This document shows, in pieces, positions 42,833 to 61,624 of a stretch of 64,000 nucleotides of DNA. The notes under the pieces were generated by a model. That model was not told the origin of the DNA, did no database searches, and saw only the letters and a program-made list of their open reading frames with translations. The DNA lies in the NCBI GenBank assembly GCA_035537875.1, contig DATLLJ010000043.1, positions 28,161-92,160 on the forward strand, written 5' to 3'. The translations under genes were made by a program, and so were the position numbers. The stretch's first letter is position 1; the number at the start of each line of letters is the position of its first letter. The stretch is from Vicinamibacterales bacterium. GTDB lineage: Bacteria > Acidobacteriota > Vicinamibacteria > Vicinamibacterales > CAVVIG01.

Positions 42833-43282
42833 ATGCTAAGGCTTTCAAAAAAGGCCGATTACGCGCTGATGGCGATGAAGCACCTCGCCTTGCGGGGCGA
42901 TAGCGGATCGTCCAACGCCCGCGAAATCGCGGAGCAGTACGACATCCCCATCGAGTTGATGGCCAAGGTGCTGCAGCGACTGGCGCGCCGCGGCCTGCTG
43001 CGATCGCACCAGGGGACGCGGGGCGGTTATCAGTTGGGCCGGGGGCCGGCACAGATCTCCGTGGCCGACGTCATTCAGGCAATCGACGGACCGGTCGCCG
43101 TGACCGCCTGCGCGGCCGAGGAAAGACAGTGCGAGCAGTTTTCGAAGTGCAACGTGCGTGATCCGCTGTTCAAGGTGCGCGATCGGATTCTCGCGGTGCT
43201 GGCGGAGTGCACCATCGCCGAGCTCGCCGCCGAGCCGCCGAGTCCGGCCTCGCGGGCCGCGGTGCTCCATACACACATTTGA
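42833..43282 (+). CDS. iscR: Rrf2-family Fe-S cluster regulator
   Basis: MLRLSKKADYALMAM, a winged helix, and Cys ligand region CAAEERQCEQFSKC. Confidence 0.85.
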   Translation: MLRLSKKADYALMAMKHLALRGDSGSSNAREIAEQYDIPIELMAKVLQRLARRGLLRSHQGTRGGYQLGRGPAQISVADVIQAIDGPVAVTACAAEERQCEQFSKCNVRDPLFKVRDRILAVLAECTIAELAAEPPSPASRAAVLHTHI

Positions 43283-43303: not shown

Positions 43304-44524
43304 ATGGCAGTCAAACTTCCGATCTACATGGACTATCACGCAACGACGCCGGTCGATCCGCGCGTCGTCGAGGCAATGGTCCCGTTCTTTACGACGCACT
43401 TCGGCAACGCGGCGAGCCGGAATCATCCCTTCGGCTGGGAAGCCGAAGAGGCCGTCGAAACGGCGCGCAAGCAGGTGGCGGATCTCATCGGCGCCAACGC
43501 GAAGGAAATCGTCTTCACGAGCGGCGCCACCGAATCCGACAACCTGGCGATCAAGGGCGTCGCCGAGATGTATCGGGAGAAGGGCAATCACATCATCACC
43601 TGCGTGACCGAGCACAAGGCGGTGATCGACACCTGTAAACGGCTCGAGAAGGATGGTTACCGCGTTACCTATCTGCCGGTTCAGAAGGACGGACGCATCA
43701 GTCTCGACGATCTGAAGGCCGCCATCACCGACAAGACGATCCTCATCTCGATCATGACCGCCAACAACGAGATTGGCGTCATGCAGCCCATTGCCGAGAT
43801 TGGTGCGATTGCCAAGGAGAAGGGCATCCTGTTCCACACCGATGCCGTCCAGGCCGTGGGCAAAGTGCCGTTCAATGTCAACGAATTGAAGGTGGATCTC
43901 GCGTCGATCAGCGCCCACAAGATGTACGGGCCGAAGGGCGTAGGGGCGCTGTACGTGCGACGGCGGAATCCCCGCGTGCTGCTCTCACCGATTATCGATG
44001 GCGGCGGCCACGAGCGCGGGATGCGATCGGGCACCCTCAACGTGCCGGGCATCGTCGGCTTCGGAAAGGCGGCGGAGCTCTGCAAGGCGGAAATGGTCGA
44101 GGAATCGACGCGGCTGCGGGGGCTGCGCGATTACCTGAACGACAAGCTGCACAGGAGCCTGGACGAAATCTACATCAACGGTTCGATGGAGCACCGGCTG
44201 CCCCACAACCTGAACATCAGCTTCGCGTACGTGGAGGGCGAATCGCTGCTGATGGGAATCAACGACGTTGCGGTGTCGTCTGGCTCGGCGTGCACGTCGG
44301 CCAGCCTGGAGCCGTCATACGTGCTCAAGGCGCTCGGCGCAGGCGACGATCTGGCGCATTCGTCGATCCGCTTCGGCCTCGGACGCTGGACCACCAAGGA
44401 AGAGGTCGACTACGTGTCGGACAAGTTGACGACGGTGGTGACGAGGCTCCGCGACATGTCGCCGCTCTACGAGCTGGCGAAGGAAGGTGTGGATTTGTCC
44501 ACGATGCAGTGGCAGGTGGACTAG
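43304..44524 (+). CDS. iscS: cysteine desulfurase
   Basis: [12 protein letters not shown] (PLP Lys), SSGSACTS (active Cys), RFGLGRWTT. Confidence 0.9.
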
Positions 44525-44528
44525 CGGG

Positions 44529-44611
44529 GAATTGAGTCATCGGGCATCTCGTCATCTGGTCAATTGATCGAGGGATTGAATGACCGGACGACCAAATGAC
44601 CAGATTGAAGG
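44529..44611. repeat. octamer-periodic imperfect hairpin element A (GGTCAT subtype), iscS-iscU spacer
   Basis: Left arm GAATTGAG-TCATCGGG-CATCTCG-TCATCTGG-TCAATTGATCG. Right arm GGATTGA-ATGACCGG-ACGACCAA-ATGACCAG-ATTGAAGG. Confidence 0.7.
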
Positions 44612-44618
44612 AGCAGAA

Positions 44619-45044
44619 ATGGCCTATTCGGAAAAAGTAATCGAGCACTACGAGCGCCCGCGCAACGTCGGATCGCTGCCGAAGGAAGACCCCAACGTAG
44701 GCACGGGACTGGTCGGCGCGCCCGAGTGCGGCGACGTCATGAAGCTGCAGGTCAAGGTGAATCCCGACACCGGGGTCATCGACGATGCGAAATTCAAGAC
44801 GTTCGGCTGCGGCTCGGCGATCGCCAGTTCGAGCCTGGCGACGGAGTGGTTGAAGGGCAAGACGGTCGATGAGGCGCTCGCCATCAAGAACACCGATATC
44901 GTCGCCGAGCTCAGCCTGCCGCCCGTCAAGATTCACTGCTCCGTGCTTGCGGAGGACGCCATCAAGGCGGCGATCTCCGACTACAAGAAGAAGCAGCAGG
45001 GGACGGCCGCGACGGCGACCAAGTCGGAACAGCCGACGGCGTAG
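44619..45044 (+). CDS. iscU: Fe-S cluster assembly scaffold
   Basis: GAPECGDVMKL, FKTFGCGSAIASS, LPPVKIHCS. Start trimmed to MAYSEK, because the longer ORF start lies inside repeat A. Confidence 0.9.
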   Translation: MAYSEKVIEHYERPRNVGSLPKEDPNVGTGLVGAPECGDVMKLQVKVNPDTGVIDDAKFKTFGCGSAIASSSLATEWLKGKTVDEALAIKNTDIVAELSLPPVKIHCSVLAEDAIKAAISDYKKKQQGTAATATKSEQPTA

Positions 45045-45056
45045 ACCAGGGCGATC

Positions 45057-45160
45057 ATCGGGTAATTGGGTAATCTGGTAATCGGGTAATTGATTGGGCC
45101 ATTGAGCTTGGGCCATTGAGCAATCGATTACCCAATTACCCAATTACCCGATTACCAAAT
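45057..45160. repeat. octamer-periodic hairpin element B (GGTAAT subtype), iscU-iscA spacer
   Basis: Left arm CGGGTAAT-TGGGTAAT-CTGGTAAT-CGGGTAAT-TGATTGG. The loop holds a direct duplication, TTGGGCCATTGAGC x2. Right arm CAATCG-ATTACCCA-ATTACCCA-ATTACCCG-ATTACCAA. Confidence 0.85.
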
Positions 45161-45171
45161 GTAGAGAACGC

Positions 45172-45498
45172 ATGATTGAGATCACTGACAACGCGGCGAA
45201 GAAGATTCGCACGCTGATGGCCAAACAGGGCCTCACCGAGGGTGGCCTGCGCGTGGGTGTCAAGGGCGGCGGGTGCTCGGGTCTGAGTTACACCTTTGCG
45301 TGGGAAAAGCAGGCGCGGGCGGGTGACGAGGTGTTCGAGGGACCGGAAGGCGCGAAGATTTTCGTCGACAAGAAGAGCCTGTTGTATCTCAACGGAACGA
45401 TCCTCGAGTACGACGCAAGTCTGCTTGGAAAGGGATTCGTCTTCAACAACCCGAACGCGAAAACCACCTGCGGATGCGGCAGCTCTTTCGGGGCCTAA
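45172..45498 (+). CDS. iscA: Fe-S cluster insertion protein (IscA/ErpA, HesB family)
   Basis: GVKGGGCSGLSY and the C-terminal CGCGSSF motif. Confidence 0.85.
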   Translation: MIEITDNAAKKIRTLMAKQGLTEGGLRVGVKGGGCSGLSYTFAWEKQARAGDEVFEGPEGAKIFVDKKSLLYLNGTILEYDASLLGKGFVFNNPNAKTTCGCGSSFGA

Positions 45499-45507
45499 AA
45501 GGGTTTC

Positions 45508-45593
45508 GGGCTTAAGACTCAGGGCTCAGGGCACTTGAGCCAGCCCAAGCCTAAGCCCCTAAGCCTTGAGCCTTGAGCCCTAAGCCCTAAGCC
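45508..45593. repeat. heptamer/octamer-periodic hairpin-like element C, iscA-hscB spacer
   Basis: Left: GGGCTTAAG-ACTCAGGG-CTCAGGG-CACTTGAGC. Right: tandem CCTAAGC/CCTTGAG units (about 6 copies) that pair with the left arm, partly through G-U-type wobble. Confidence 0.7.
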
Positions 45594-45599
45594 TTATTT

Positions 45600-46304
45600 A
45601 TGTCCTCCGAAACGACCGGTCGCGTGCTTCAGGCTTGCAAGAATTGCGGTGGCGGCGCGCCGATGGACGTGCACTTCTGTCCACAGTGCAGTCAGATTCT
45701 GACGATCGGCCGTCACGGCGATTATTTCGCGTTTCTCGGCATCCCTCGCAGGCTGAACCTCGACGTGACGGATCTCGAGCGACGCTTCCGTGCGCTCAGC
45801 CGCCAGTTTCACCCGGACTATTTCTTCAACGCGAGTCCGGCCGAACGCCGGGCCAGCCTCGAAAGATCGTCCTATCTCAACGATGCGTACCGGACGTTGC
45901 GCAATCCCGTCGCCCGTGTCGAGTACCTGCTCGGGCTCGAAGGATTTCCTCCGAGGCAGCCCGAGAGCGGAGACGGCACGCCGAAAGTTCCGGCCGAGAT
46001 GCTGGAGGAAGTGTTTGCGCTGAACGAGGAACTCGACGAAGTCCGTGCCTTGCGTGCCGGCGGTGCGGCGCCCGAGGTCTGGCGGGCGAGGCTCGAGCGC
46101 GCCCGGGCGCCGATTGATGCCCGGCGGGCGGCGCATGAAGCGGAGCTGGAGGACTTGTCTGCCCGGTGGGACGGGCTCGGCGACGATGCTGGCGCGGACG
46201 GTCGCGGGAGGGAGGCGATTCTCGGGGCGCTCCGCGAGCGTGTCCTCGAGCGGAATTACATCAACAACCTGCTCGAAGGGGTTGAACGGGAACTGAACGC
46301 GTAG
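45600..46304 (+). CDS. hscB: Fe-S co-chaperone HscB with N-terminal Cys4 zinc-ribbon-like motif
   Basis: CKNCGG...CPQC, then a J-domain DYFAFLGIPRR...LSRQFHPD. Confidence 0.8.
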   Translation: MSSETTGRVLQACKNCGGGAPMDVHFCPQCSQILTIGRHGDYFAFLGIPRRLNLDVTDLERRFRALSRQFHPDYFFNASPAERRASLERSSYLNDAYRTLRNPVARVEYLLGLEGFPPRQPESGDGTPKVPAEMLEEVFALNEELDEVRALRAGGAAPEVWRARLERARAPIDARRAAHEAELEDLSARWDGLGDDAGADGRGREAILGALRERVLERNYINNLLEGVERELNA

Positions 46305-46306
46305 GG

Positions 46307-46349
46307 CGGGCAGAGGCTAGAGGGCAGAGGTTAGAGGCCAGAGCGCAGG
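46307..46349 (+). repeat. tandem heptamer array D (NNAGAGG x ~6), hscB-hscA spacer
   Basis: GCAGAGG-CTAGAGG-GCAGAGG-TTAGAGG-CCAGAGC-GCAGGA, ending 5 nt before the hscA ATG (46354). No inverted partner seen. Confidence 0.7.
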
Positions 46350-46353
46350 ACTC

Positions 46354-48183
46354 ATGGGCAAAGTAGTTGGAATCGATCTCGGCACCACAAACAGCCTCGT
46401 CGCCTATGTGGCCGACGGTGTCCCCGTCGTGATCCGCGATCGCACCGGCGACGCCCTGGTGCCGTCCGTGGTGTCCGTCGCGGACGACAGCACCGTCTTC
46501 GTCGGCCGTGAAGCCGAACGTCGGCTGCTGACCGATCCGGCCCGCACGATCTATTCGGTGAAGCGTTTCATGGGCAAGGGGATGCGCGACGTCGGTGACG
46601 AGGCGCGACTGTTCCCCTTCAGCCTCGTCGGCGATCCAGGCGGTATCGTCCGCATCGGCCTGGGGACCCGCGACTTTACCGCTCCGGAGATTTCCGCGTT
46701 CATTCTGCGCGAGCTGAAACATCGCGCCGAGGCGCATTTCGCCGCTCAAGGGGAAATCGATTCCGAGGTGGACCGCGCGGTGATCACCGTGCCGGCGTAT
46801 TTCAACGATGCGCAGCGGACCGCGACCCGCGACGCGGGGCGCATCGCCGGGCTCGACGTCCTTCGCATCATCAACGAGCCGACGGCCGCGTCGCTCGCCT
46901 ATGGGCTGGACAAGCGGCACGCGGGCCTCATCGCCGTCTACGATTTCGGGGGCGGGACGTTCGACATTTCCATCTTGCGCGTTGAAGACGGCGTCTTCCA
47001 GGTGTTGGCGACCAACGGCGACACTCACCTTGGCGGTGACGATATCGACCTGTTGTTGATGAAGCAGATCCTGGCTGAGACGAAGAACGCGGGAGCCTCC
47101 GGCGCCGAGATCCAGGCCATCCGTCAGGCGGTCATTCAGGCCAAACTCGATCTGTCTGACCGCGACGAGACCGAAGTCATCGTCGGCACGCACCGGAAGC
47201 GGATCGCTCGAGCGGAGTTCGAGTCGGTCATTCGTCCCATCGTCGAGCGCACGCTCGAGCCCTGTCGTCAGGCGCTCGTCGATGCCGGCCTGCAGCCATC
47301 GCAAATCGACGAGGTGGTGTTGGTGGGCGGCTCCACGCGCATTCCGCTGGTGCGTCGTCTGGTTGGCGAGCTGTTCGGCAGAACGCCTCATACCGAGCTG
47401 AACCCGGATGAGGTGGTGGCGCTCGGTGCCGCCATTCAAGCCGACATCCTCATGACCGGCAACCGTGAGCTGCTGCTGCTGGACGTCACGCCTCTGTCGC
47501 TCGGCATCGAGACAATGGGTGGGGTGATGTCGAAGATCATCCTGCGGAACTCGACGATTCCGGCGACCGGCAGCGAGATGTTCACCACCTTCGTCGACAA
47601 CCAGACGGCCGTGGACATTCACGTGCTGCAGGGCGAACGTGAGCTGGTTGCCGACAACCGTTCGCTCGCCCGGTTCAAGCTGCGCGGCATTCCGGCGATG
47701 CCTGCGGGGATGCCCCGGGTCCAGGTGCAGTTCCAGATCGACGCCAACGGCATCCTCAGCGTGACGGCCCGCGAGCTGCGGACCGATGTGGAACAGACCA
47801 TCGAGGTCAAGCCGTCGTACGGGTTGACCGACGACGAAGTCGAGCGGATGCTGCTCGATTCGTTCGAGCATGCCGAGGCCGACTTCGCGGCGCGGTTGCT
47901 GATCGAGGCACGGAATGAGGCCGAGACGGTCATTCGCGCAACCGCGAAGTCACTCAGGTCGCGGGAGTTCGCCGAGATTGCTGAGAGCGAGTTGAAGCCC
48001 GGCGAACTGGAGCGGATCGAAGGCGCCCTCGCCAATGTGACGGCCGTGCTGAACGGACCGGACCGCGAGCTGATTAAAGCGAGGACGCACGATCTCAACG
48101 AGGCCACCCAGCACCTGGCCGAAGTGATGATGAACCGATCGGTGCAGGCGGCGTTGACGGGGAAGAGCATCGACCGGTTGTAG
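46354..48183 (+). CDS. hscA: Fe-S chaperone HscA (Hsp70 family)
   Basis: [32 protein letters not shown]. Confidence 0.9.
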
Positions 48184-48190
48184 GCACCCT

Positions 48191-48571
48191 ATGCCGAGAG
48201 TCACCTTCATCATCGACGGCGACGAGCAGACCGTCGAGTTCGAGCACGGCAAGCTGCCGTACTCGCACCATGGAAAACCAGAGTCCTTTCTTGACGTCGC
48301 CAAGAATTTCGACGTGCCGCTCGAGCATGCCTGTGGCGGGAGTTGCGCCTGCACGACCTGTCACGTGATTATTCGCGACGGCGAACAGCACCTGAGCGAG
48401 ATGCAAGACGATGAGGCCGATCGTCTGGACACGGCGTGGGGCCTGACGGCCCGCTCCCGCCTGGGCTGCCAGGCGGTGATCAGCGGCGACGTCGTGTGCG
48501 AATTGCCTATGTATACCCGCAACTACGTGCAGGAGGGCGGCGGCATCCAGCTGGGGAAGTCAGGAGGATAG
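48191..48571 (+). CDS. fdx: [2Fe-2S] ferredoxin (ISC type)
   Basis: EHACGGSCACTTCHVII...SRLGCQ. Confidence 0.85.
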   Translation: MPRVTFIIDGDEQTVEFEHGKLPYSHHGKPESFLDVAKNFDVPLEHACGGSCACTTCHVIIRDGEQHLSEMQDDEADRLDTAWGLTARSRLGCQAVISGDVVCELPMYTRNYVQEGGGIQLGKSGG

Positions 48572-50539: not shown

Positions 50540-51231
50540 GCGTGCTCGTCAACATCAAGGACGTGCAGAAGCATTTCACCAGGGGCAGCGAGCGTATCGA
50601 GGTGCTGAAGGGGGTGAACCTGCAGATCCCTCAAGGCGATTTTCTCGCCCTGATGGGCCCATCCGGTTCCGGCAAGACGACGCTGCTCAACCTGATGGGT
50701 GGATTGGACACGCCGACGGGCGGGTCGGTCGAAGTCGGCGGTGTGCGCATCGATCAGCTGAGCGGAAGCAGCCTGTCCCGATGGCGTTCGCAGAACATCG
50801 GCTTCGTCTTCCAGCTCTACAACCTGCTTCCCGTGCTCACAGCCGAGCGCAACGTGGAGCTGCCGCTGCTGTTGACGAAGCTGTCCAAGAGCGAGCGACG
50901 CAAGCGCGCCGGCATCGCGCTCAAGGTGGTCGGTCTGGCGGACCGCGCGGATCATTACCCGCGCCAGTTGTCAGGTGGTCAGGAACAGCGGGTCGGCATC
51001 GCCCGCGCGATCGTGATTGATCCCACGCTCCTGCTCTGCGACGAGCCGACAGGCGATCTGGATCGGAAGGCTGGCGACGAAATTCTGGAGCTGCTTCAGA
51101 CGCTCAATCAAGAGCACGGGAAGACCATCGTCATGGTCACCCACGATCCGCACGCTGCCGAGCGCGCGCGCCGCACGCTGCACCTGGACAAAGGCGTCTT
51201 GACAGAGGCGACAGAGGCGCAGATGGCATGA
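50536..51231 (+). CDS. ABC transporter ATP-binding protein (MacB/LolD-type)
   Basis: GPSGSGKTT, LSGGQEQRV, LLLCDEPTGDLD. Confidence 0.9.
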   Translation: MSVLVNIKDVQKHFTRGSERIEVLKGVNLQIPQGDFLALMGPSGSGKTTLLNLMGGLDTPTGGSVEVGGVRIDQLSGSSLSRWRSQNIGFVFQLYNLLPVLTAERNVELPLLLTKLSKSERRKRAGIALKVVGLADRADHYPRQLSGGQEQRVGIARAIVIDPTLLLCDEPTGDLDRKAGDEILELLQTLNQEHGKTIVMVTHDPHAAERARRTLHLDKGVLTEATEAQMA

Positions 51232-53586: not shown

Positions 53587-54420
53587 ATGAAGATCCATCT
53601 CGCCCACAGCCCCGACTCCGATGACGCCTTCATGTTTTACGGCCTCGCCAGCGGCAAGGTCGCGTCGGACGGGTTCGAGCTGGAGCATGTACTTGCCGAT
53701 ATCGAAACGCTCAATCGTGCCGCGTTCGAGGGGCGGTACGAGGTCACGGCCGTATCGTTTCATGCATACGCGCATTTGACGGACCGATATGTCCTGCTTC
53801 CGCACGGCGCCAGCATGGGCGACCGCTACGGTCCGGTCGTCGTGACGAAACGGGACGGGCCCAGATCGCTGAAGGGCGTGCAGGTCGGTGTGCCGGGCGA
53901 GATGACGACCGCGTTCCTGACCCTGCGGCTCTACGACCCAAGTGTGGAGTACGTGGTCATGCCGTTCGATCGGATTCAGGAGGCCGTCCACAGCGGTGAG
54001 ATCGCCGCCGGCCTGCTGATTCACGAAGGCCAGGTCACGTATGAGGAGGAGGGCTTGCGAAAGCTCGTCGATCTCGGCGAGTGGTGGGCCGACCGAACCG
54101 GCGGGCTGCCGCTGCCCCTCGGCGGCAACGTCATCAGGCGCGATCTCGGCGAGGCCACAATCGCTCGGCTTTCGGGACTCCTTCACGACAGCATCGCCTT
54201 CGGCCTCGCGCACCGGGATGAGGCCGTGCGGTATGCGATGCAGTTCGGCCGCGGGCTCGACGAGGGGCTGACCGATCGGTTCGTCGGGATGTACGTCAAC
54301 GACCTGACGCTCGACTACGGAACCCGCGGGCGCGCGGCGGTGCAGCGCCTGCTCGGTGACGCCCAAAGTGCCGGGCTGCTGCCGAAACCTGTCAGCGTCG
54401 AGTTTGTTCACGTGAATTGA
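53587..54420 (+). CDS. menaquinone (futalosine pathway) MqnA/MqnD-family protein, MqnD-like
   Basis: MKIHLAHSPDSDDAFMFYGL resembles the MqnD N-terminal HSPCPND pattern; periplasmic-binding-like fold family. I cannot separate MqnA from MqnD with certainty. Confidence 0.6.
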   Translation: MKIHLAHSPDSDDAFMFYGLASGKVASDGFELEHVLADIETLNRAAFEGRYEVTAVSFHAYAHLTDRYVLLPHGASMGDRYGPVVVTKRDGPRSLKGVQVGVPGEMTTAFLTLRLYDPSVEYVVMPFDRIQEAVHSGEIAAGLLIHEGQVTYEEEGLRKLVDLGEWWADRTGGLPLPLGGNVIRRDLGEATIARLSGLLHDSIAFGLAHRDEAVRYAMQFGRGLDEGLTDRFVGMYVNDLTLDYGTRGRAAVQRLLGDAQSAGLLPKPVSVEFVHVN

Positions 54421-54527
54421 GTCATCTGGTCATCTGGTCATCTGGTCATTGATTGGAGGATTGAGTGGAAAATCGGTCCAATCAAATGACCAGATGACTG
54501 GATGACTTGACCAGATGTGATTGGGCC
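54414..54527. repeat. octamer-periodic hairpin element E (GGTCAT subtype)
   Basis: Left arm GAATTGAG-TCATCTGG x3-TCATTGATTGG; ~22-nt loop; right arm CCAATCAA-ATGACCAG-ATGACTGG-ATGACTTG-ACCAGATG-TGATTGGG. It contains the mqnD-like stop codon and the 3' end of the convergent gene. Confidence 0.85.
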
Positions 54528-55309
54528 AGGATGTCGTGAATCTGGCGCACACCATCGGTCAGCGCCGCTGGTCCCGGCTGCAGGATGTAGGCTGATCTCA
54601 CTTCGAAGATTCGATCGTTGACGATCGCGCTGATCGCCCCCCAGCCTGGACGCTGACGGATGCGGGCGGGCTGAACCTTCTTCCCGCACCACGACGCCAG
54701 CACGAACTCCGGATTACGTCGAACGACGTCCAGGGGATCGACGATCCGATCGCGCGCAAGACGGGCGCCGGCCAGCTCGGGAAAAATCGGTACGCCGCCT
54801 GCAATCTCCACAAGCTCCTCGACCCACCGGATTCCTGATATCAGAGGCTCGTCCCACTCCTCGAAGAAGACCCGCGGGCGGCTGGCGAAACGCGAGGCCG
54901 ATCGCCGAATCTGCTCGAGGCCCTCGTTGAGTCTGTCGGCCAGCTGCTCGGCCTCGCCCTGGCACCCGACGAGGCCGCCGACCATTCGAACCATCTGCAG
55001 GATCTCGGCGACCGAGCGCTGGTTGAATGTCAACACCGCGATGCCGCGCCTCACGAGCTCAGCCGAAAGATCGGCCTGCAGATCCGAGAAGGCGAGCACG
55101 AGGTCGGGCTCGAGCGCGACGATCTTGTCGAATCTGGCGCTGGTGAATGCCGAAATCCGCGGTTTCTGTCTCGCTTCCGGAGGTCTGACCGTATAGCCCG
55201 AGACGCCGACGATACGGTCACCTTGTCCCAGAAGATACAGGGTTTCCGTGGTCTCCTCGGTAAGACACACGATGCGGCTGGGGAATTTGTTCATGCCCCA
55301 ATTCTTCAT
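54482..55309 (-). CDS. BtuF-like (periplasmic-binding-protein fold, PF01497-type) cobalamin/siderophore-binding protein lacking a signal peptide
   Basis: RIVCLTEETTETLYLLGQGDRIVGVSGY...ALEPDLVLA pattern. The N-terminus MKNWGMNKFPSRIV has no hydrophobic leader. ATGA overlap with the upstream gene at 55306-55309. The last ~8 codons are encoded by repeat E. Confidence 0.7.
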   Translation of the reverse strand: MKNWGMNKFPSRIVCLTEETTETLYLLGQGDRIVGVSGYTVRPPEARQKPRISAFTSARFDKIVALEPDLVLAFSDLQADLSAELVRRGIAVLTFNQRSVAEILQMVRMVGGLVGCQGEAEQLADRLNEGLEQIRRSASRFASRPRVFFEEWDEPLISGIRWVEELVEIAGGVPIFPELAGARLARDRIVDPLDVVRRNPEFVLASWCGKKVQPARIRQRPGWGAISAIVNDRIFEVRSAYILQPGPAALTDGVRQIHDILAQSHLVKSSSHLVI

Positions 55310-55962
55310 TGAAGGTCGGCGAACACGAACCCATCTCTCTCCACCACGATGCCGCGTCGAATTGGAATGGGGTGTCGGAACATCGGGCCATCGTACGCAA
55401 ACGAATGGAACTCGCCGCGCTCGCCGCAAGGGTCCACGCCCGCCGGCAGGTCGGCGAGCAGCGATGAATCGAATTCTCGCCCAACGAAGCCTCGGTCGAG
55501 AACGGCCGGGTTGACACAGGTGATTCGTGCCGCGAGCCCAGCGCCGATCATTTGGCGGGCGAGGGCCGCAGTGTCAGAGCCAAACAGAGGAAAGATCGGC
55601 GACAGGCCGGTCCCGGCCAGACGCTCTTCCCGGTACCGCCGCACATCTTCGAGGAACAGATCGCCGAAGGCGATGTGGGTGAATCCTTCGCGGACGGCCC
55701 GTGCGACGACTTGACCCATCGCCTGCTCGTAGATCTCGTTCGGACATGGTGAAGGGATCGGCACTGTCCACAGCGGCAACCCGAGCGCTTCGGCTTGCGC
55801 GTCGAGCAGCTCCATGCGGACCGCGTGCATCGCAACCCGCTGGGCTGCCTCGTTGACCGTCGTCAACAGACCAGCCAACAACACATCACTCCGTTGCCGC
55901 AGCACGTGGACCATCCACGCGCTGTCTTTACCGGTGGACCAGGAGAGCAGACACTTGGTCAT
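55306..55962 (-). CDS. DUF71/COG2102 (ATP_bind_4, Dph6-related) PP-loop ATPase, copy 2
   Basis: LLSWSTGKDS PP-loop, HIAFGDLFLEDVRRYRE, DPCGERGEFHSF. The start codon lies inside repeat F. Confidence 0.7.
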   Translation of the reverse strand: MTKCLLSWSTGKDSAWMVHVLRQRSDVLLAGLLTTVNEAAQRVAMHAVRMELLDAQAEALGLPLWTVPIPSPCPNEIYEQAMGQVVARAVREGFTHIAFGDLFLEDVRRYREERLAGTGLSPIFPLFGSDTAALARQMIGAGLAARITCVNPAVLDRGFVGREFDSSLLADLPAGVDPCGERGEFHSFAYDGPMFRHPIPIRRGIVVERDGFVFADLQ

Positions 55963-56104
55963 TGGGTCATCCGGTCATCGGCCATCTTCTCGAGCTCGTT
56001 GCGAACGGCCCGCGCCATCTTCAAGCCCAGCCCTACACTCAACAGCTCCAATCCCAATCCCCCAATCAATGACCAGATGTCCAGATGACCAGATGCCCCA
56101 ATTC
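55960..56104. repeat. hairpin element F (GGTCAT subtype, long interrupted loop)
   Basis: Left: CATTGG-GTCATCCG-GTCATCGG-CCATCT. Right: CCAATCCCAATCCCCCAATCAAT-GACCAGAT-GTCCAGAT-GACCAGAT-GCCCCAATTC. The core CCAATCCCCCAATCAAT is shared with element G. Confidence 0.7.
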
Positions 56105-56105
56105 C

Positions 56106-56993
56106 CTATCTCCAAGCCCCAGGGTGCAGCGTGCGTGCGAACCGTTCGGCGGCCAGAACGATGCGTGGTCCTGGCACGACGAACTCGTCGCCCGCGAGCA
56201 GATAGACCCGGTCGGATTTGACCGCCGGCACCGACGCGAGCGCATTCCACACGAGACGCTCCGATCCCATCTTGTCGGGCCTGAGCGAGTTGCCGTAGTG
56301 CAGCTCGATGACCACGTCTGGCGCTCGCGTCAGAATCAATTCGGTGCTCATGTCAACCGACTGTTTCTTCACATCCGCGAGGACATTGGCGCCGCCTGCG
56401 AGTTCGAGCACGTCGTGCAGAAACCCGTAGCCCCCGCTTGCGTTGATCTGTCGCAACGTCCCCGGCTCACGTCCGAAGACGAGCAGCGTCCTCGGCCTGG
56501 GCCTGCCGCTCACGCGACGGCCGACGGCGGCCAGCTGCTGCTCGATGCGTGAGGCGATGGCGTCCGCGTCGCTGGCCACCCCAATTCTCGCGCCCAGCGT
56601 CCGCATCGTCTGCGTGATGTCCCTCAAGTCGCGGTGCACGTAGTTGAACATCGGGATCTGCGCGCGTTCGAGCTGTCTCTTGAGATCGGTCTGCGTGTCG
56701 TAGACGACGACGAGATCGGGTTTCAGCGCGAGCAACCGTTCGACGTCCGGATCGACCAGGCCGCCGACCCGCGGCAGCCGATCGACCTCTGGAGGGAAGC
56801 GGTCGTAGGTGCCGACGCCGGCGAGCCGACCACCGGCTCCCATCGCGAAGATCATCTCGGTTACGGCGGGAGCGAGCGAAATGATGCGTTGCGGCGGATC
56901 GGCAGCTCGAGCCGTGACGACGGACAGCGCCACGATCAGCGCGGTACGAGCGATCGATGCTTTCGGTGTCAGACGCGTCGCAGCAGGAGCCAT
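56106..56993 (-). CDS. btuF: periplasmic cobalamin/iron-siderophore binding protein (BtuF-like) with signal peptide
   Basis: Signal-like ARTALIVALSVVTARA, then RIISLAPAVTEMIFAMGAG..LAGV and LKPDLVVV. Confidence 0.75.
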   Translation of the reverse strand: MAPAATRLTPKASIARTALIVALSVVTARAADPPQRIISLAPAVTEMIFAMGAGGRLAGVGTYDRFPPEVDRLPRVGGLVDPDVERLLALKPDLVVVYDTQTDLKRQLERAQIPMFNYVHRDLRDITQTMRTLGARIGVASDADAIASRIEQQLAAVGRRVSGRPRPRTLLVFGREPGTLRQINASGGYGFLHDVLELAGGANVLADVKKQSVDMSTELILTRAPDVVIELHYGNSLRPDKMGSERLVWNALASVPAVKSDRVYLLAGDEFVVPGPRIVLAAERFARTLHPGAWR

Positions 56994-59895: not shown

Positions 59896-60399
59896 ATGAG
59901 CAAGAGTTCGACCGTCACCGTACGCGAGCGGCCTGTTGAAGATATCGCCAGCGCGTCGGTCGGTGGCCTTACGATCCACGGTGAGACGCTGGTCATCAGC
60001 ACGGATCAGCGCATCGAGTTGGTCGATCTCACGAACAAGGTCATGGAGTTCGTGCGGCGCTTCAACATGCGCGAGGGGCTCGTCAGCCTCTGGTCGATGC
60101 ACACCACCTGTTCGCTCTTCATCAACGAGTTCCAGACGGCGCTGCTCACCGACATCCGCCGGTTTCTCGAGCAGATGGTCGCGCGCGACGCGGAGTGGAT
60201 GCACAACAACCCGGAACACTCGGACTGCGATCGGATGAACGCCGACTCGCACCTTCGGGCGGTCCTCCTCGGTCACCACGTCACGCTTCAGGTCAGCGGC
60301 GGAGAAGTCGTGCTGGGCCAATGGCAGCGGATCCTGATGGCAGAGCTCGACGGCCCACGGGCTCGATCGCTGCGCATCCAGATCTTCGGGATCTCGTAG
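59896..60399 (+). CDS. yjbQ: YjbQ/UPF0047 family protein (secondary thiamine-phosphate synthase-like)
   Basis: EGLVSLWSMHTTCSLFINE...DSHLRAVLLGHHVTLQVSGGEVVLGQWQRI. Confidence 0.8.
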   Translation: MSKSSTVTVRERPVEDIASASVGGLTIHGETLVISTDQRIELVDLTNKVMEFVRRFNMREGLVSLWSMHTTCSLFINEFQTALLTDIRRFLEQMVARDAEWMHNNPEHSDCDRMNADSHLRAVLLGHHVTLQVSGGEVVLGQWQRILMAELDGPRARSLRIQIFGIS

Positions 60400-60402
60400 A
60401 GC

Positions 60403-60518
60403 GAATTGGGTAATTGGGTAATCGGGTAATCTGGTAATTGATTTGGAGATTGATCAGGACGCTCGACCCAATCCCCCAATCAATTACCCAATTACCCGAT
60501 TACCCAATTACCCAATTC
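60403..60518. repeat. octamer-periodic hairpin element G (GGTAAT subtype) with perfect terminal inverted repeat
   Basis: Left arm GAATTGGGTAATTGGGTAATCGGGTAATCTGGTAATTGATTTGG. Right arm CCAATCCCCCAATCAATTACCCAATTACCCGATTACCCAATTACCCAATTC. The outer 20 nt are exact reverse complements. Confidence 0.9.
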
Positions 60519-60532
60519 ACCGTCATTCCCGT

Positions 60533-61624
60533 TTGTCCTCGTCCGGTCTCCTCGCCATCTCCGACAAACTGGCGGCCGGCGTTCGCCTGACGCTCGAGGA
60601 CGGGATCCGGCTGTTCGAGTGCCCGGATTTGCTGGCCGTTGGTGCGCTCGCCAATGCGGACCGTGAAAAGCGGCACGGTCACAGGACCTACTACAACTAC
60701 AACATCCGTCTCGAAGCGACCAACGTCTGCGTGGCCAGCTGTCTGTTCTGTTCGTTCGCGCGGCTGAAGCCCGGCGACCCTGGCGCGTACACCATGTCGC
60801 TCGAACAGGCGTGGGACAAGCTTCGGCGTCGCGCGCACCAGCCGCTGACCGAGGTGCACGTCGTCAACGGTCTCCATCCCGATTTGCCGTTCGATTACTA
60901 CACGGAGATGCTCCGGGGCTTCAAGCGGATCCGTCCCGGTATCCACTTGAAGTGCTTTACGGCAGTCGAGATCGCATTTTTCGCGGATCTTTACGGGATG
61001 AGCGACGAACAGGTGCTGCGCGAGCTCATGGCGGCCGGCCTCGACTCGCTGCCAGGCGGCGGGGCCGAAATCTTCGCTGACCGCGTCCGTCGCAAGATCG
61101 CCAACGACAAGTGCGGCACGGAACGCTACCTCGATATCCATCGGAAGGCGCACGGGCTGGGCCTGCGCAGCAACGTCACGATGCTCTACGGGCACATCGA
61201 GACGGCCGAGGAACGTGTAGACCACATGCTGCGGGCGCGCGCGCTGCAGGACGAGACGGGAGGTTTCCAGGCGTTCATTCCGCTGGCCTTCCATCCCGAC
61301 AACAACCAGATGCGGAAGCTGCCGGCGCCGAGCGCGGCCGACAGTCTCCGGGTGCACGCCGTGTCGAGGCTGATGCTCGACAACATCGCGCACGTCAAGG
61401 CCTTCTGGATTGCGACGGGCGTGGAAGTGGCGCAGACCTCCCTCTGGTTCGGGGTCGACGACCTCGACGGGACGGTGCAGGAGGAACGCATCTATCACAT
61501 GGCCGGCGCCCGTACGCCGGAGGCGATGACGCCGCGCGAGATCGAACGGCTGATTGTGGCGGCGGGACGTCAGCCGCTTGAACGCGACACGTTCTACAAC
61601 GTCGTTCCCCGGGCCATCAATTAG
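60533..61624 (+). CDS. radical SAM menaquinone biosynthesis enzyme, MqnE/MqnC family (aminofutalosine synthase-like)
   Basis: SDKLAAGVRLTLEDGIRLFE..DLLAVGALAN..., radical SAM cluster motif CVASCLFCSF. Start set to in-frame TTG 60533, because the longer ORF start (60443) lies inside repeat G. Confidence 0.75.
   Translation: MSSSGLLAISDKLAAGVRLTLEDGIRLFECPDLLAVGALANADREKRHGHRTYYNYNIRLEATNVCVASCLFCSFARLKPGDPGAYTMSLEQAWDKLRRRAHQPLTEVHVVNGLHPDLPFDYYTEMLRGFKRIRPGIHLKCFTAVEIAFFADLYGMSDEQVLRELMAAGLDSLPGGGAEIFADRVRRKIANDKCGTERYLDIHRKAHGLGLRSNVTMLYGHIETAEERVDHMLRARALQDETGGFQAFIPLAFHPDNNQMRKLPAPSAADSLRVHAVSRLMLDNIAHVKAFWIATGVEVAQTSLWFGVDDLDGTVQEERIYHMAGARTPEAMTPREIERLIVAAGRQPLERDTFYNVVPRAIN

Follow-up and report, generated by a model that had tools for sequence, protein, structure and literature searches.

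Within a 64,000-nucleotide stretch of a Vicinamibacterales genome (Acidobacteriota; contig DATLLJ010000043.1, positions 28,161 to 92,160; the whole stretch is termed the window below) the isc operon carries arrays of 7-8 nucleotide (nt) units in four consecutive spacers, namely iscS-iscU, iscU-iscA, iscA-hscB and hscB-hscA. These arrays are members of a class of abundant non-coding repeat DNA, built from 7-8 nt units and usually arranged as inverted pairs, which occurs in many bacteria. The elements are intergenic and hypervariable by whole units, they occur in some orthologous operons but not in others, and both arms of an element keep a common unit while this unit changes between lineages. 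With a probability of roughly one half we regard them as DNA-level, slippage-prone tandem-repeat palindromes which are carried as co-transcribed passengers in the isc operon.

Arrays were located by Tandem Repeats Finder (TRF) and a repeat finder, with a strict periodicity detector and shuffled sequences as controls. Every array which an earlier note on this DNA had described in the four spacers was recovered, and TRF also retrieved the related copies it had reported at 54.4, 56.0 and 60.4 kb:

44529-44609, unstranded: element A, iscS-iscU spacer; decayed GGTCAT-type octamer palindrome of xGTCATxx units.
45056-45161, unstranded: element B, iscU-iscA spacer; GGTAAT-type octamer palindrome.
45497-45598, unstranded: element C, iscA-hscB spacer; heptamer palindrome.
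46305-46349, plus strand: element D, hscB-hscA spacer; one-sided array of about six heptamers NNAGAGG.
54414-54524, unstranded: GGTCATCT-type palindrome between convergent genes.
55955-56107, unstranded: GGTCAT-type palindrome, loop about 90 nt, filling the spacer between two minus-strand genes.
60403-60518, unstranded: GGTAAT-type palindrome, the best-preserved copy.

The repeat pattern in the window is far beyond chance. The strict periodicity detector found seven arrays and none in each of ten shuffles, and GGTNATNNGGTNAT, with at most one mismatch, was matched 26 times against 1.45 +/- 1.18 in shuffles, 24 of the 26 matches falling into the five elements (A, B and the copies at 54.4, 56.0 and 60.4 kb) of GGTMAT type, which comprises GGTAAT and GGTCAT. 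The cores ATTGATTGG and CCAATCAAT occur exactly four times, always within an element. Periods of 7, 8 and 14 were reported by TRF, with two to seven copies per arm. All seven elements are intergenic and range from 44.5 to 60.5 kb, and the periodicity detector found no such element in the spacers of the first 44 kb. Elements A, B and C and the copies at 54.4, 56.0 and 60.4 kb each consist of two convergent arrays of the same unit, close together on opposite strands. In B and in the 60.4 kb copy, the left arm holds three GGG units and one TGG unit, and most other units have GG or no G-run.

The four isc elements differ in unit sequence and in state of preservation. Element A reads (GAATTG)AGTCATCG GGCATCTC GTCATCTG GTCAATTG, loop, ATGACCGG ACGACCAA ATGACCAG, with a TRF array of period 8 at 44536-44562 and an inverted repeat I9; its RNA fold (-27.6 kcal/mol) has a z of only -1.2 and is therefore that of a weak, decayed hairpin. 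Better-preserved GGTCAT and GGTAAT elements occupy the iscS-iscU spacer of the relatives L129, L180 and L173. In element B, four GGTAATNN units lead through the inner junction TGATTGG into a loop, which is a 14-nt unit present twice, and four NNATTACC units complete the palindrome; its arms (45056-45096 and 45121-45161) are 41 nt each and 83% complementary, the fold reaches -56.2 kcal/mol (z -6.8), and the variable dinucleotides of the left arm follow the order TG/CT/CG/TG, as in the copies of other Acidobacteriota genomes. Element C extends from the iscA stop codon to 1 nt short of the hscB ATG at 45600 and opposes about three left units (GGCTTAA/GACTCAG/GGCTCAG) to about seven right units (GCCTAAG/GCCTTGA/GCCCTAA), with a fold of -53.2 kcal/mol (z -6.2). 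Element D, in which TRF delimits an array at 46308-46348 with period 7 and a 14-nt super-unit, has AGGA just ahead of the hscA ATG and, at z +0.5, forms no hairpin, in agreement with the one-sided array first described. Thus, the inverted hairpin arrays claimed for the first three spacers are very stable in B and C, but A is only a weak remnant. The earlier observation that the architecture is retained while the unit sequence differs was accurate and holds across relatives, too.

The further copies fold as well, and two of them reach into called genes. At 54.4 kb (TRF 54421-54449, 100% matches; -57.3 kcal/mol, z -6.9) the first degenerate unit holds the TGA stop (54418-54420) of a plus-strand VitK2-biosynthesis gene, and the called C-terminus (54482-54530) of a minus-strand periplasmic binding protein, whose gene ends at 54482, is translated from the right arm. 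At 56.0 kb (TRF 55957-55979 and 56069-56095; z -3.0) the called ATG of a minus-strand gene (55960-55962) is part of an ATGACC unit. At these two sites the gene calls could be mistaken, or else the proteins could carry tails derived from the repeats; since units supply stop and start codons, the elements distort gene calls, and they also create assembly-sensitive polymorphisms. The 60.4 kb copy (TRF 60404-60440 and 60481-60517; -72.3 kcal/mol, z -12.7) is flanked by a YjbQ-family gene, with its stop codon at 60397-60399, and by a radical-SAM gene starting at 60533. Separately, the motif ATGCCCCAATTC, terminal in the 56.0 kb element, recurs at 55280-55305 (GGGGAATTTGTTCATGCCCCAATTC), directly past the stop of a minus-strand gene ending at 55306; this stretch could be left over from another element or be its seed.

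Microsatellite-like instability affecting whole units was seen directly between strains. A contig of ENA ERZ27256789 (k141_2263670; L001, L199) is 99.93-99.96% identical to the window over 28.4 kb and differs by nine substitutions and two indels, by which the window is a strain-level variant of a near-identical public contig. Both indels lie in the right arm of element C (45552-45568) and amount to one whole heptamer, missing in the other strain, and 1 nt; one substitution hits the variable unit position 60415 of the 60.4 kb copy. Hence 3 of 11 differences are located within elements which cover about 2.5% of the sequence.

The comparison of orthologous isc operons, which the earlier note had proposed, was carried out on 80 metagenome loci encoding HscB relatives of 64-80% identity, in which the genes were mapped; elements were present in some and absent from others, and were not specific to isc. 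Spacer lengths were bimodal, genes being either compact or overlapping, or separated by long spacers: hscB and hscA overlapped in 34 of 64 loci, the iscU-iscA spacer was at most 8 nt in 17 of 54, and the iscA-hscB spacer was at least 45 nt in 40 of 74. Among 108 unique long spacers 44 were periodic (period 7 in 35, period 8 in seven and period 9 in two) by a criterion which shuffles satisfied at a rate of 0.001, and the iscA-hscB spacer was most often periodic (25/39). Most non-periodic long spacers contained other hairpins, including REP-like (repetitive extragenic palindrome) stem-loops tagged with GTAG.

The unit type was specific to each isc spacer and followed the HscB tree. At iscA-hscB the consensus unit is GGCTCAG/GGCTTAA in the clade of the window and GTCTCAA, GGTTCTG, GGTTCAG, GGTTCAC, AGTTAGA or AGTTCGA in other clades, and in every clade the consensus of the left arm agrees with the reverse-complemented consensus of the right arm at 6-7 of 7 positions. 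In an alignment of this spacer within the window's clade, flanks and cores were shared and unit numbers differed, and the elements of sister lineages were homologous; a consensus-structure fold was used solely for homology and variation in unit number, the alignment of the periodic arms being ambiguous. When 199 loci were searched for the units of C and for GGTTCA units, these were found only in the orthologous spacer and in one Bacteroidota array. Filled and empty sites could be compared directly, as L149 reads 'tgaTCACCatg' where L141 has an 89-nt CACGAAA hairpin at the equivalent place, and a graded series exists in one clade, from two units of 9 nt (L178) to three (L147) and to 4+7 heptamers (L164, L148, L136). 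The orthologues of D comprise complete periodic hairpins (L119, L123, L125-L127), a one-sided array (L122) and overlapping genes at the place of the element (L120, L121), for which reason D is best read as a half or decayed element. By their comparison with relatives, C and D look inherited and remodelled in place. In the contigs of the relatives, the density of arrays outside the isc genes was no lower than within them, so the isc operon is not a special target. The analysed contigs of these soil Acidobacteriota contain roughly 1-4 arrays per 10 kb, which by extrapolation would correspond to several hundred or more per genome.

The GTAG-tagged REP-like stem-loops form a second class of spacer elements (e.g., GTAGCGCAGCCCTTCAGGGCTGC and GTAGTGTCCGGCTTCAGCCGGAC), either single or in tandem, and were observed at iscS-iscU (L141, L142), iscU-iscA (L124, L125, L131) and hscA-fdx (L148). 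They, too, are present or absent between very close relatives: iscU and iscA overlap in L123, and a 63-nt doublet separates them in L125.

As to how such elements could arise and persist, we suggest that arrays lengthen and shorten by replication slippage, and that their arms would be made and kept complementary by intra-strand template switching at a DNA hairpin (quasi-palindrome correction) or, alternatively, by selection on a strand-symmetric DNA structure. Slippage was proposed for bacterial heptamer repeats (PMC4692102), and template switching can create and maintain hairpin stems (PMC8794818). New copies would arise by some copying route, with at least one family dispersing, and elements would settle in the only places where they are tolerated, from a stop codon to the next ribosome-binding site, where they may sometimes donate the stop or start codon.

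Strong hairpins are bound to form once the elements are transcribed, which makes an effect on decay or on translational coupling plausible; for the isc elements, with RNA hairpins of -28 to -56 kcal/mol, hindrance of exonucleases or uncoupling of translation is probable as a by-product. The earlier note had suggested that the hairpins may set the stoichiometry of IscS:IscU:IscA:HscBA; a dedicated role of this kind found no support. On such an account the elements would be kept for their RNA, as exonuclease barriers, processing sites or partial terminators tuning the output of IscS, IscU, IscA and HscB/A, which we consider unlikely. It would fit the very stable folds of B and C exactly between a stop codon and the next start, the long retention of the iscA-hscB element, and the fact that some strong hairpin, a non-periodic one in the case of L133, occupies these isc spacers in roughly half the relatives. 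A precedent exists in Escherichia coli, where a strong structure between iscR and iscS shapes the differential decay of iscRSUA (PMC12533949). However, elements maintained as RNA should have arm mismatches enriched for G.U on the sense strand and should fold better in sense than in antisense. In 59 spacer hairpins, G.U was no commoner than A.C on the sense strand (72 vs 80), and among 42 periodic hairpins 19 were more stable in the sense fold and 23 in the antisense fold, unlike the 45 non-periodic hairpins of the same spacers, which favoured sense by 27 to 18 (p 0.039). No strand-specific RNA signature was therefore apparent, neither as G.U excess nor, for the periodic hairpins, as sense-fold advantage. 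No terminator-like site (stem plus U-tract) was found on the plus strand at 42.5-49.5 kb, a promoter and terminator scan gave no signal in the elements, and a tRNA/tmRNA search found none. With Rfam 15 the sole window match at gathering score was a cobalamin riboswitch, and permissive thresholds yielded just sub-threshold microRNA-hairpin matches in the spacers.

Further points against a role in RNA are the many orthologous operons with overlapping or compact junctions, element D and several orthologues being one-sided arrays without structure, and the location of elements between convergent genes and across gene ends; comparable arrays by unrelated genes speak against the stoichiometry proposal in the same way. 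A slight excess of sense frames closed by stops (2.48 vs 2.14 expected, with no antisense excess) would be in line with a function in RNA, but its significance was not established; the idea that units are selected as all-frame stop signals, tested with these counts, was set aside on the same grounds. The RNA effect of the elements is thus probably incidental, and there is no sign in the data that they are maintained by it. Searches for RNA motifs that are based on covariation would misread them as conserved RNA structures.

Beyond the isc operon, a pattern scan for three GGT[A/C]AT octamers in one genome per species retrieved at least 117 loci, assigned to phyla by record titles. Among the matches listed, 32 were from Acidobacteriota, 24 from Chloroflexota and 31 from Bacteroidota, with the remainder from Armatimonadota, Planctomycetota, Nitrospirota and others; inverted pairs made up 21/32, 8/24 and 2/31 in the first three phyla. 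The palindromic form is typical of Acidobacteriota and less common in Chloroflexota, and the Bacteroidota arrays are one-sided. Confinement to the window or a frequently intragenic location, either of which the earlier note had named as evidence to the contrary, was not observed, as copies occur in many phyla and, in high-GC loci among the matches listed, 30 of 39 clusters lie outside coding sequence though about 80% of the DNA is open reading frame (ORF). The window, L019, L021, L024 and L049 share the order GGTAAT-TG, -CT, -CG, -TG-ATTGG at unrelated loci, in L019 as an almost perfect palindrome. Because copies have this dinucleotide order and the inner junction in common, GGTAAT/GGTCAT is a genuine dispersed family. 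Its C and A variants are compensated in the opposite arm, and its copies vary widely in length, unit number and loop (24-130 nt).

Arrays of GGTAAT/ATTACC were also noted immediately upstream of rplK, the gene of ribosomal protein L11, in metagenome-assembled genomes (MAGs) of a member of the Bacteroidia (L026) and of an acidobacterium (L062), and other GGTMAT copies adjoin secY, hrcA and nuoK-like genes. The gene neighbourhoods might point to a preference for the spacers of highly expressed housekeeping operons. In loci of Chloroflexota and Bacteroidota (L003, L020, L031, L085, L102) arrays are embedded in compound tracts of successive 7-11 nt units, for example GGAGATTG, CACCTTG and TTCAAGG, which are reminiscent of cyanobacterial repeat clusters.

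Dispersal raises the question of mobility. The second proposal of the earlier note, a family resembling MITEs (miniature inverted-repeat transposable elements) which targets spacers, was borne out as far as GGTMAT is conserved, dispersed and intergenic, but the sharp termini, target duplication and transposase of such a family were not found in the copies and candidate loci inspected. Movement in trans of classical MITE- or REP-like elements by an arm-recognising transposase, be it a tyrosine enzyme of the REP-associated (RAYT) or terminal inverted repeat (TIR)-associated (TIRYT) type or that of an insertion sequence, appears quite unlikely to us, in spite of several copies in 16 kb, a strong intergenic bias, filled and empty sites, and the sequence, TGATTGG junction and TGAATTG...CAATTCA-like ends which GGTMAT copies share across loci and genomes. 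TIR-associated tyrosine transposases were reported from Acidobacteria together with TIR repeat families (PMC3733652), and insertion sequences lie at a fixed distance from analogous sites in Geobacter (PMC2700814), both of which would suit transposition. However, the outer ends of the elements fade into degenerate units (TGAATTG...) instead of forming sharp terminal inverted repeats, and no target-site duplication was visible flanking the window copies or L019, L021, L024 and L093. No transposase ORF was found between array pairs in five candidate loci (L004, L011, L052, L062, L076), which enclose housekeeping genes such as hrcA, rplK/rplA and secY. The highly variable copy length, unit number and loop, the agreement of unit type per isc spacer with HscB phylogeny, the restriction of the C heptamer units to the orthologous spacer among the 199 loci searched, and the absence of the GTAG tag from periodic elements are likewise difficult to combine with such a transposase.

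The architecture has been seen before, but has never been explained. That no named family fits, as the earlier note stated, is a fair description, with the reservation that precedents of this architecture were published (PMC4692102; PMC2700814); text searches of a library of papers for the literal arrays gave no match. Closest are the GGGAATC heptamers of Xanthomonas (Rehm et al. 2015), with about 186 arrays and 70-75 convergent inverted pairs per genome, which are transcribed, 89-93% intergenic, near the upstream stop codon and mostly between co-oriented genes, and of which the position is conserved between species while the length varies and the inverted pairs can form stem-loops (PMC4692102). 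The window elements likewise have tandem 7-nt units, arrays of about four or more copies and inverted pairs, and GGGAATC resembles GGGTAATC. In Xanthomonas, though, a single G-rich unit dominates and a G-quadruplex was proposed, whereas here many unrelated units exist side by side, octamers and heptamers have equal prominence in the window, and what is conserved is the complementarity of the arms.

Paired arrays were also described in Geobacter metallireducens as class 1-3 'putative global regulator binding sites' (Aklujkar et al. 2009, PMC2700814). These, too, come in pairs, three to five tandem repeats of 7-9 nt facing others on the opposite strand with variable spacing, with several unit classes and dozens of copies per genome, some of them inside operons (proB-proA), but their units are different (GTTGCTYN, TCTCCGTS, MTYCTGA) and insertion sequences adjoin some of them. 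They were interpreted as sites of integration host factor (IHF)/HU or of a regulator without tests, and no comparative or polymorphism analysis was reported (PMC2700814). If the same were assumed for the window, the elements would be protein-binding arrays, with IHF/HU, gyrase or metalloregulator (Fur) sites organising the chromosome or blocking transcription, which on the sequences at hand we regard as improbable. GGTAAT does resemble GATAAT, the Fur box hexamer, degenerate outer units read GATAATTG, the window elements are situated among iron- and cofactor-related genes, and the constraint is strand-symmetric. One sequence-specific protein is hard to reconcile, however, with units that differ completely between spacers and between clades at one spacer; moreover, a period of 7-8 bp is out of phase with the DNA helix, and copies in other genomes flank unrelated housekeeping genes. 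The Fur-box resemblance in particular was set aside, as the units are too variable and copies elsewhere are not linked to iron genes.

Other systems share single traits. The intergenic tandem heptamers of Calothrix and Nostoc, the cyanobacterial short tandemly repeated repetitive (STRR) sequences, come in several unit types per genome, as do the present elements, and one classical STRR unit, TTGGTCA, is the GGTCAT motif in heptamer form. Traits of the STRR type are found here: at least three head-to-tail units of 5-11 nt, unit-number polymorphism between close strains and intergenic location. Cyanobacterial arrays are mostly one-sided, unlike the inverted pairs of the window, and few inverted pairs were reported for Nostoc (PMC4692102). 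An excess of heptamer repeats in large bacterial genomes and tandem heptamers of cyanobacteria are cited in the same work (PMC4692102). REPs and bacterial interspersed mosaic elements (BIMEs) of enterobacteria are abundant extragenic palindromes, often downstream of genes in operons and co-transcribed, for which mRNA stabilisation or binding of gyrase or IHF was proposed (PMC3733652). In abundance, intra-operon position and co-transcription the present elements are alike, but REPs are single stem-loops, 20-40 nt long, whose GTAG tag RAYT transposases recognise (PMC3733652), whereas those described here measure about 80-150 nt, have internally periodic arms and lack a GTAG/CGTC tag. Long inverted arms of short tandem repeats, variable in arm length and central segment, characterise the Foldback transposons of Drosophila; these are eukaryotic, kilobase-sized and demonstrably mobile, and the likeness is architectural only.

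Related arrays are hence on record from Chloroflexota, Bacteroidota, Xanthomonas, Geobacter and cyanobacteria, with function or mechanism established in none. What is added here is the range of phyla, the coexistence of many unit types, arms that evolve in concert at orthologous sites, unit polymorphism at strain level and the lack of an RNA signature, and this comparative picture leads to testable alternatives, namely homogenisation by template switching, structural selection and transposition.

That the passenger reading is held at no more than one half is due to three observations which weigh against it. First, a related element persists at iscA-hscB across 64-80% HscB identity, which is unexpected for neutral DNA. 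Second, L133 has a non-periodic, perfect 24-bp hairpin (364-426) at iscA-hscB, ahead of a shared TTTCAC-ATG context, where other members of its clade carry GGTTCA heptamer palindromes; this is the strongest single hint that a hairpin as such may be wanted at this position, and together with the persistence of the element it would be compatible with selection for a hairpin. Third, the variable positions of the units lack mirroring, both between the arms of B and when L136 is compared with L146, so that copying of whole arms is not the sole process. In addition, no dispersal mechanism was identified for the elements, and a local excess is left unexplained, as four consecutive spacers are occupied and five GGTMAT copies lie within 16 kb, compared with about 1.2 extra copies in every 100 kb elsewhere.

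A wider claim, which we put forward only tentatively and hold to be doubtful, is that the elements constitute an unnamed, phylum-spanning class that is kept at orthologous spacers across deep divergence while the units of both arms are replaced together, which implies either a homogenising mechanism or selection on structure. The first would be an unrecognised homogenisation between arms at the DNA level, by templated repair at extruded hairpins. The second would be selection on a sequence-independent, strand-symmetric structure, e.g., a cruciform, which might serve the management of supercoils or be a landmark of replication or recombination in highly transcribed operons.

The surrounding operon is an ISC operon of canonical type with all genes on the plus strand, identified by NCBIfam in the 64-kb window:

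42833-43282, plus strand: Rrf2 regulator.
43304-44524, plus strand: iscS.
44619-45044, plus strand: iscU; the true start is the ATG at 44619, with GGAG ahead at 44610-44613.
45172-45498, plus strand: iscA.
45600-46304, plus strand: hscB.
46354-48183, plus strand: hscA.
48191-48571, plus strand: fdx.

About 40 residues with two CxxC pairs (CKNCGG...CPQC; window 45600-45720) extend HscB at its N-terminus. As the HscB profile match begins only at residue 40, the extension looks like a zinc-ribbon-like addition.

Elsewhere in the window, the genes at 7-13 kb are syntenic with those of a Vicinamibacterales MAG at 50-64% amino-acid identity. A tandem 9-mer GACAGAGGC (2.7 copies, 51201-51223) keeps the reading frame of an ABC ATPase gene, at whose 3' end it is found and which overlaps the next gene by ATGA; considered as a relative of the spacer elements, it proved to be coding and apparently unrelated. 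The cobalamin riboswitch (RF00174; 59559-59704, minus strand; Rfam, 82.6 bits) precedes a minus-strand operon of a periplasmic binding protein, a FecCD permease and an ABC ATPase, and this operon contains the 56.0 kb element.

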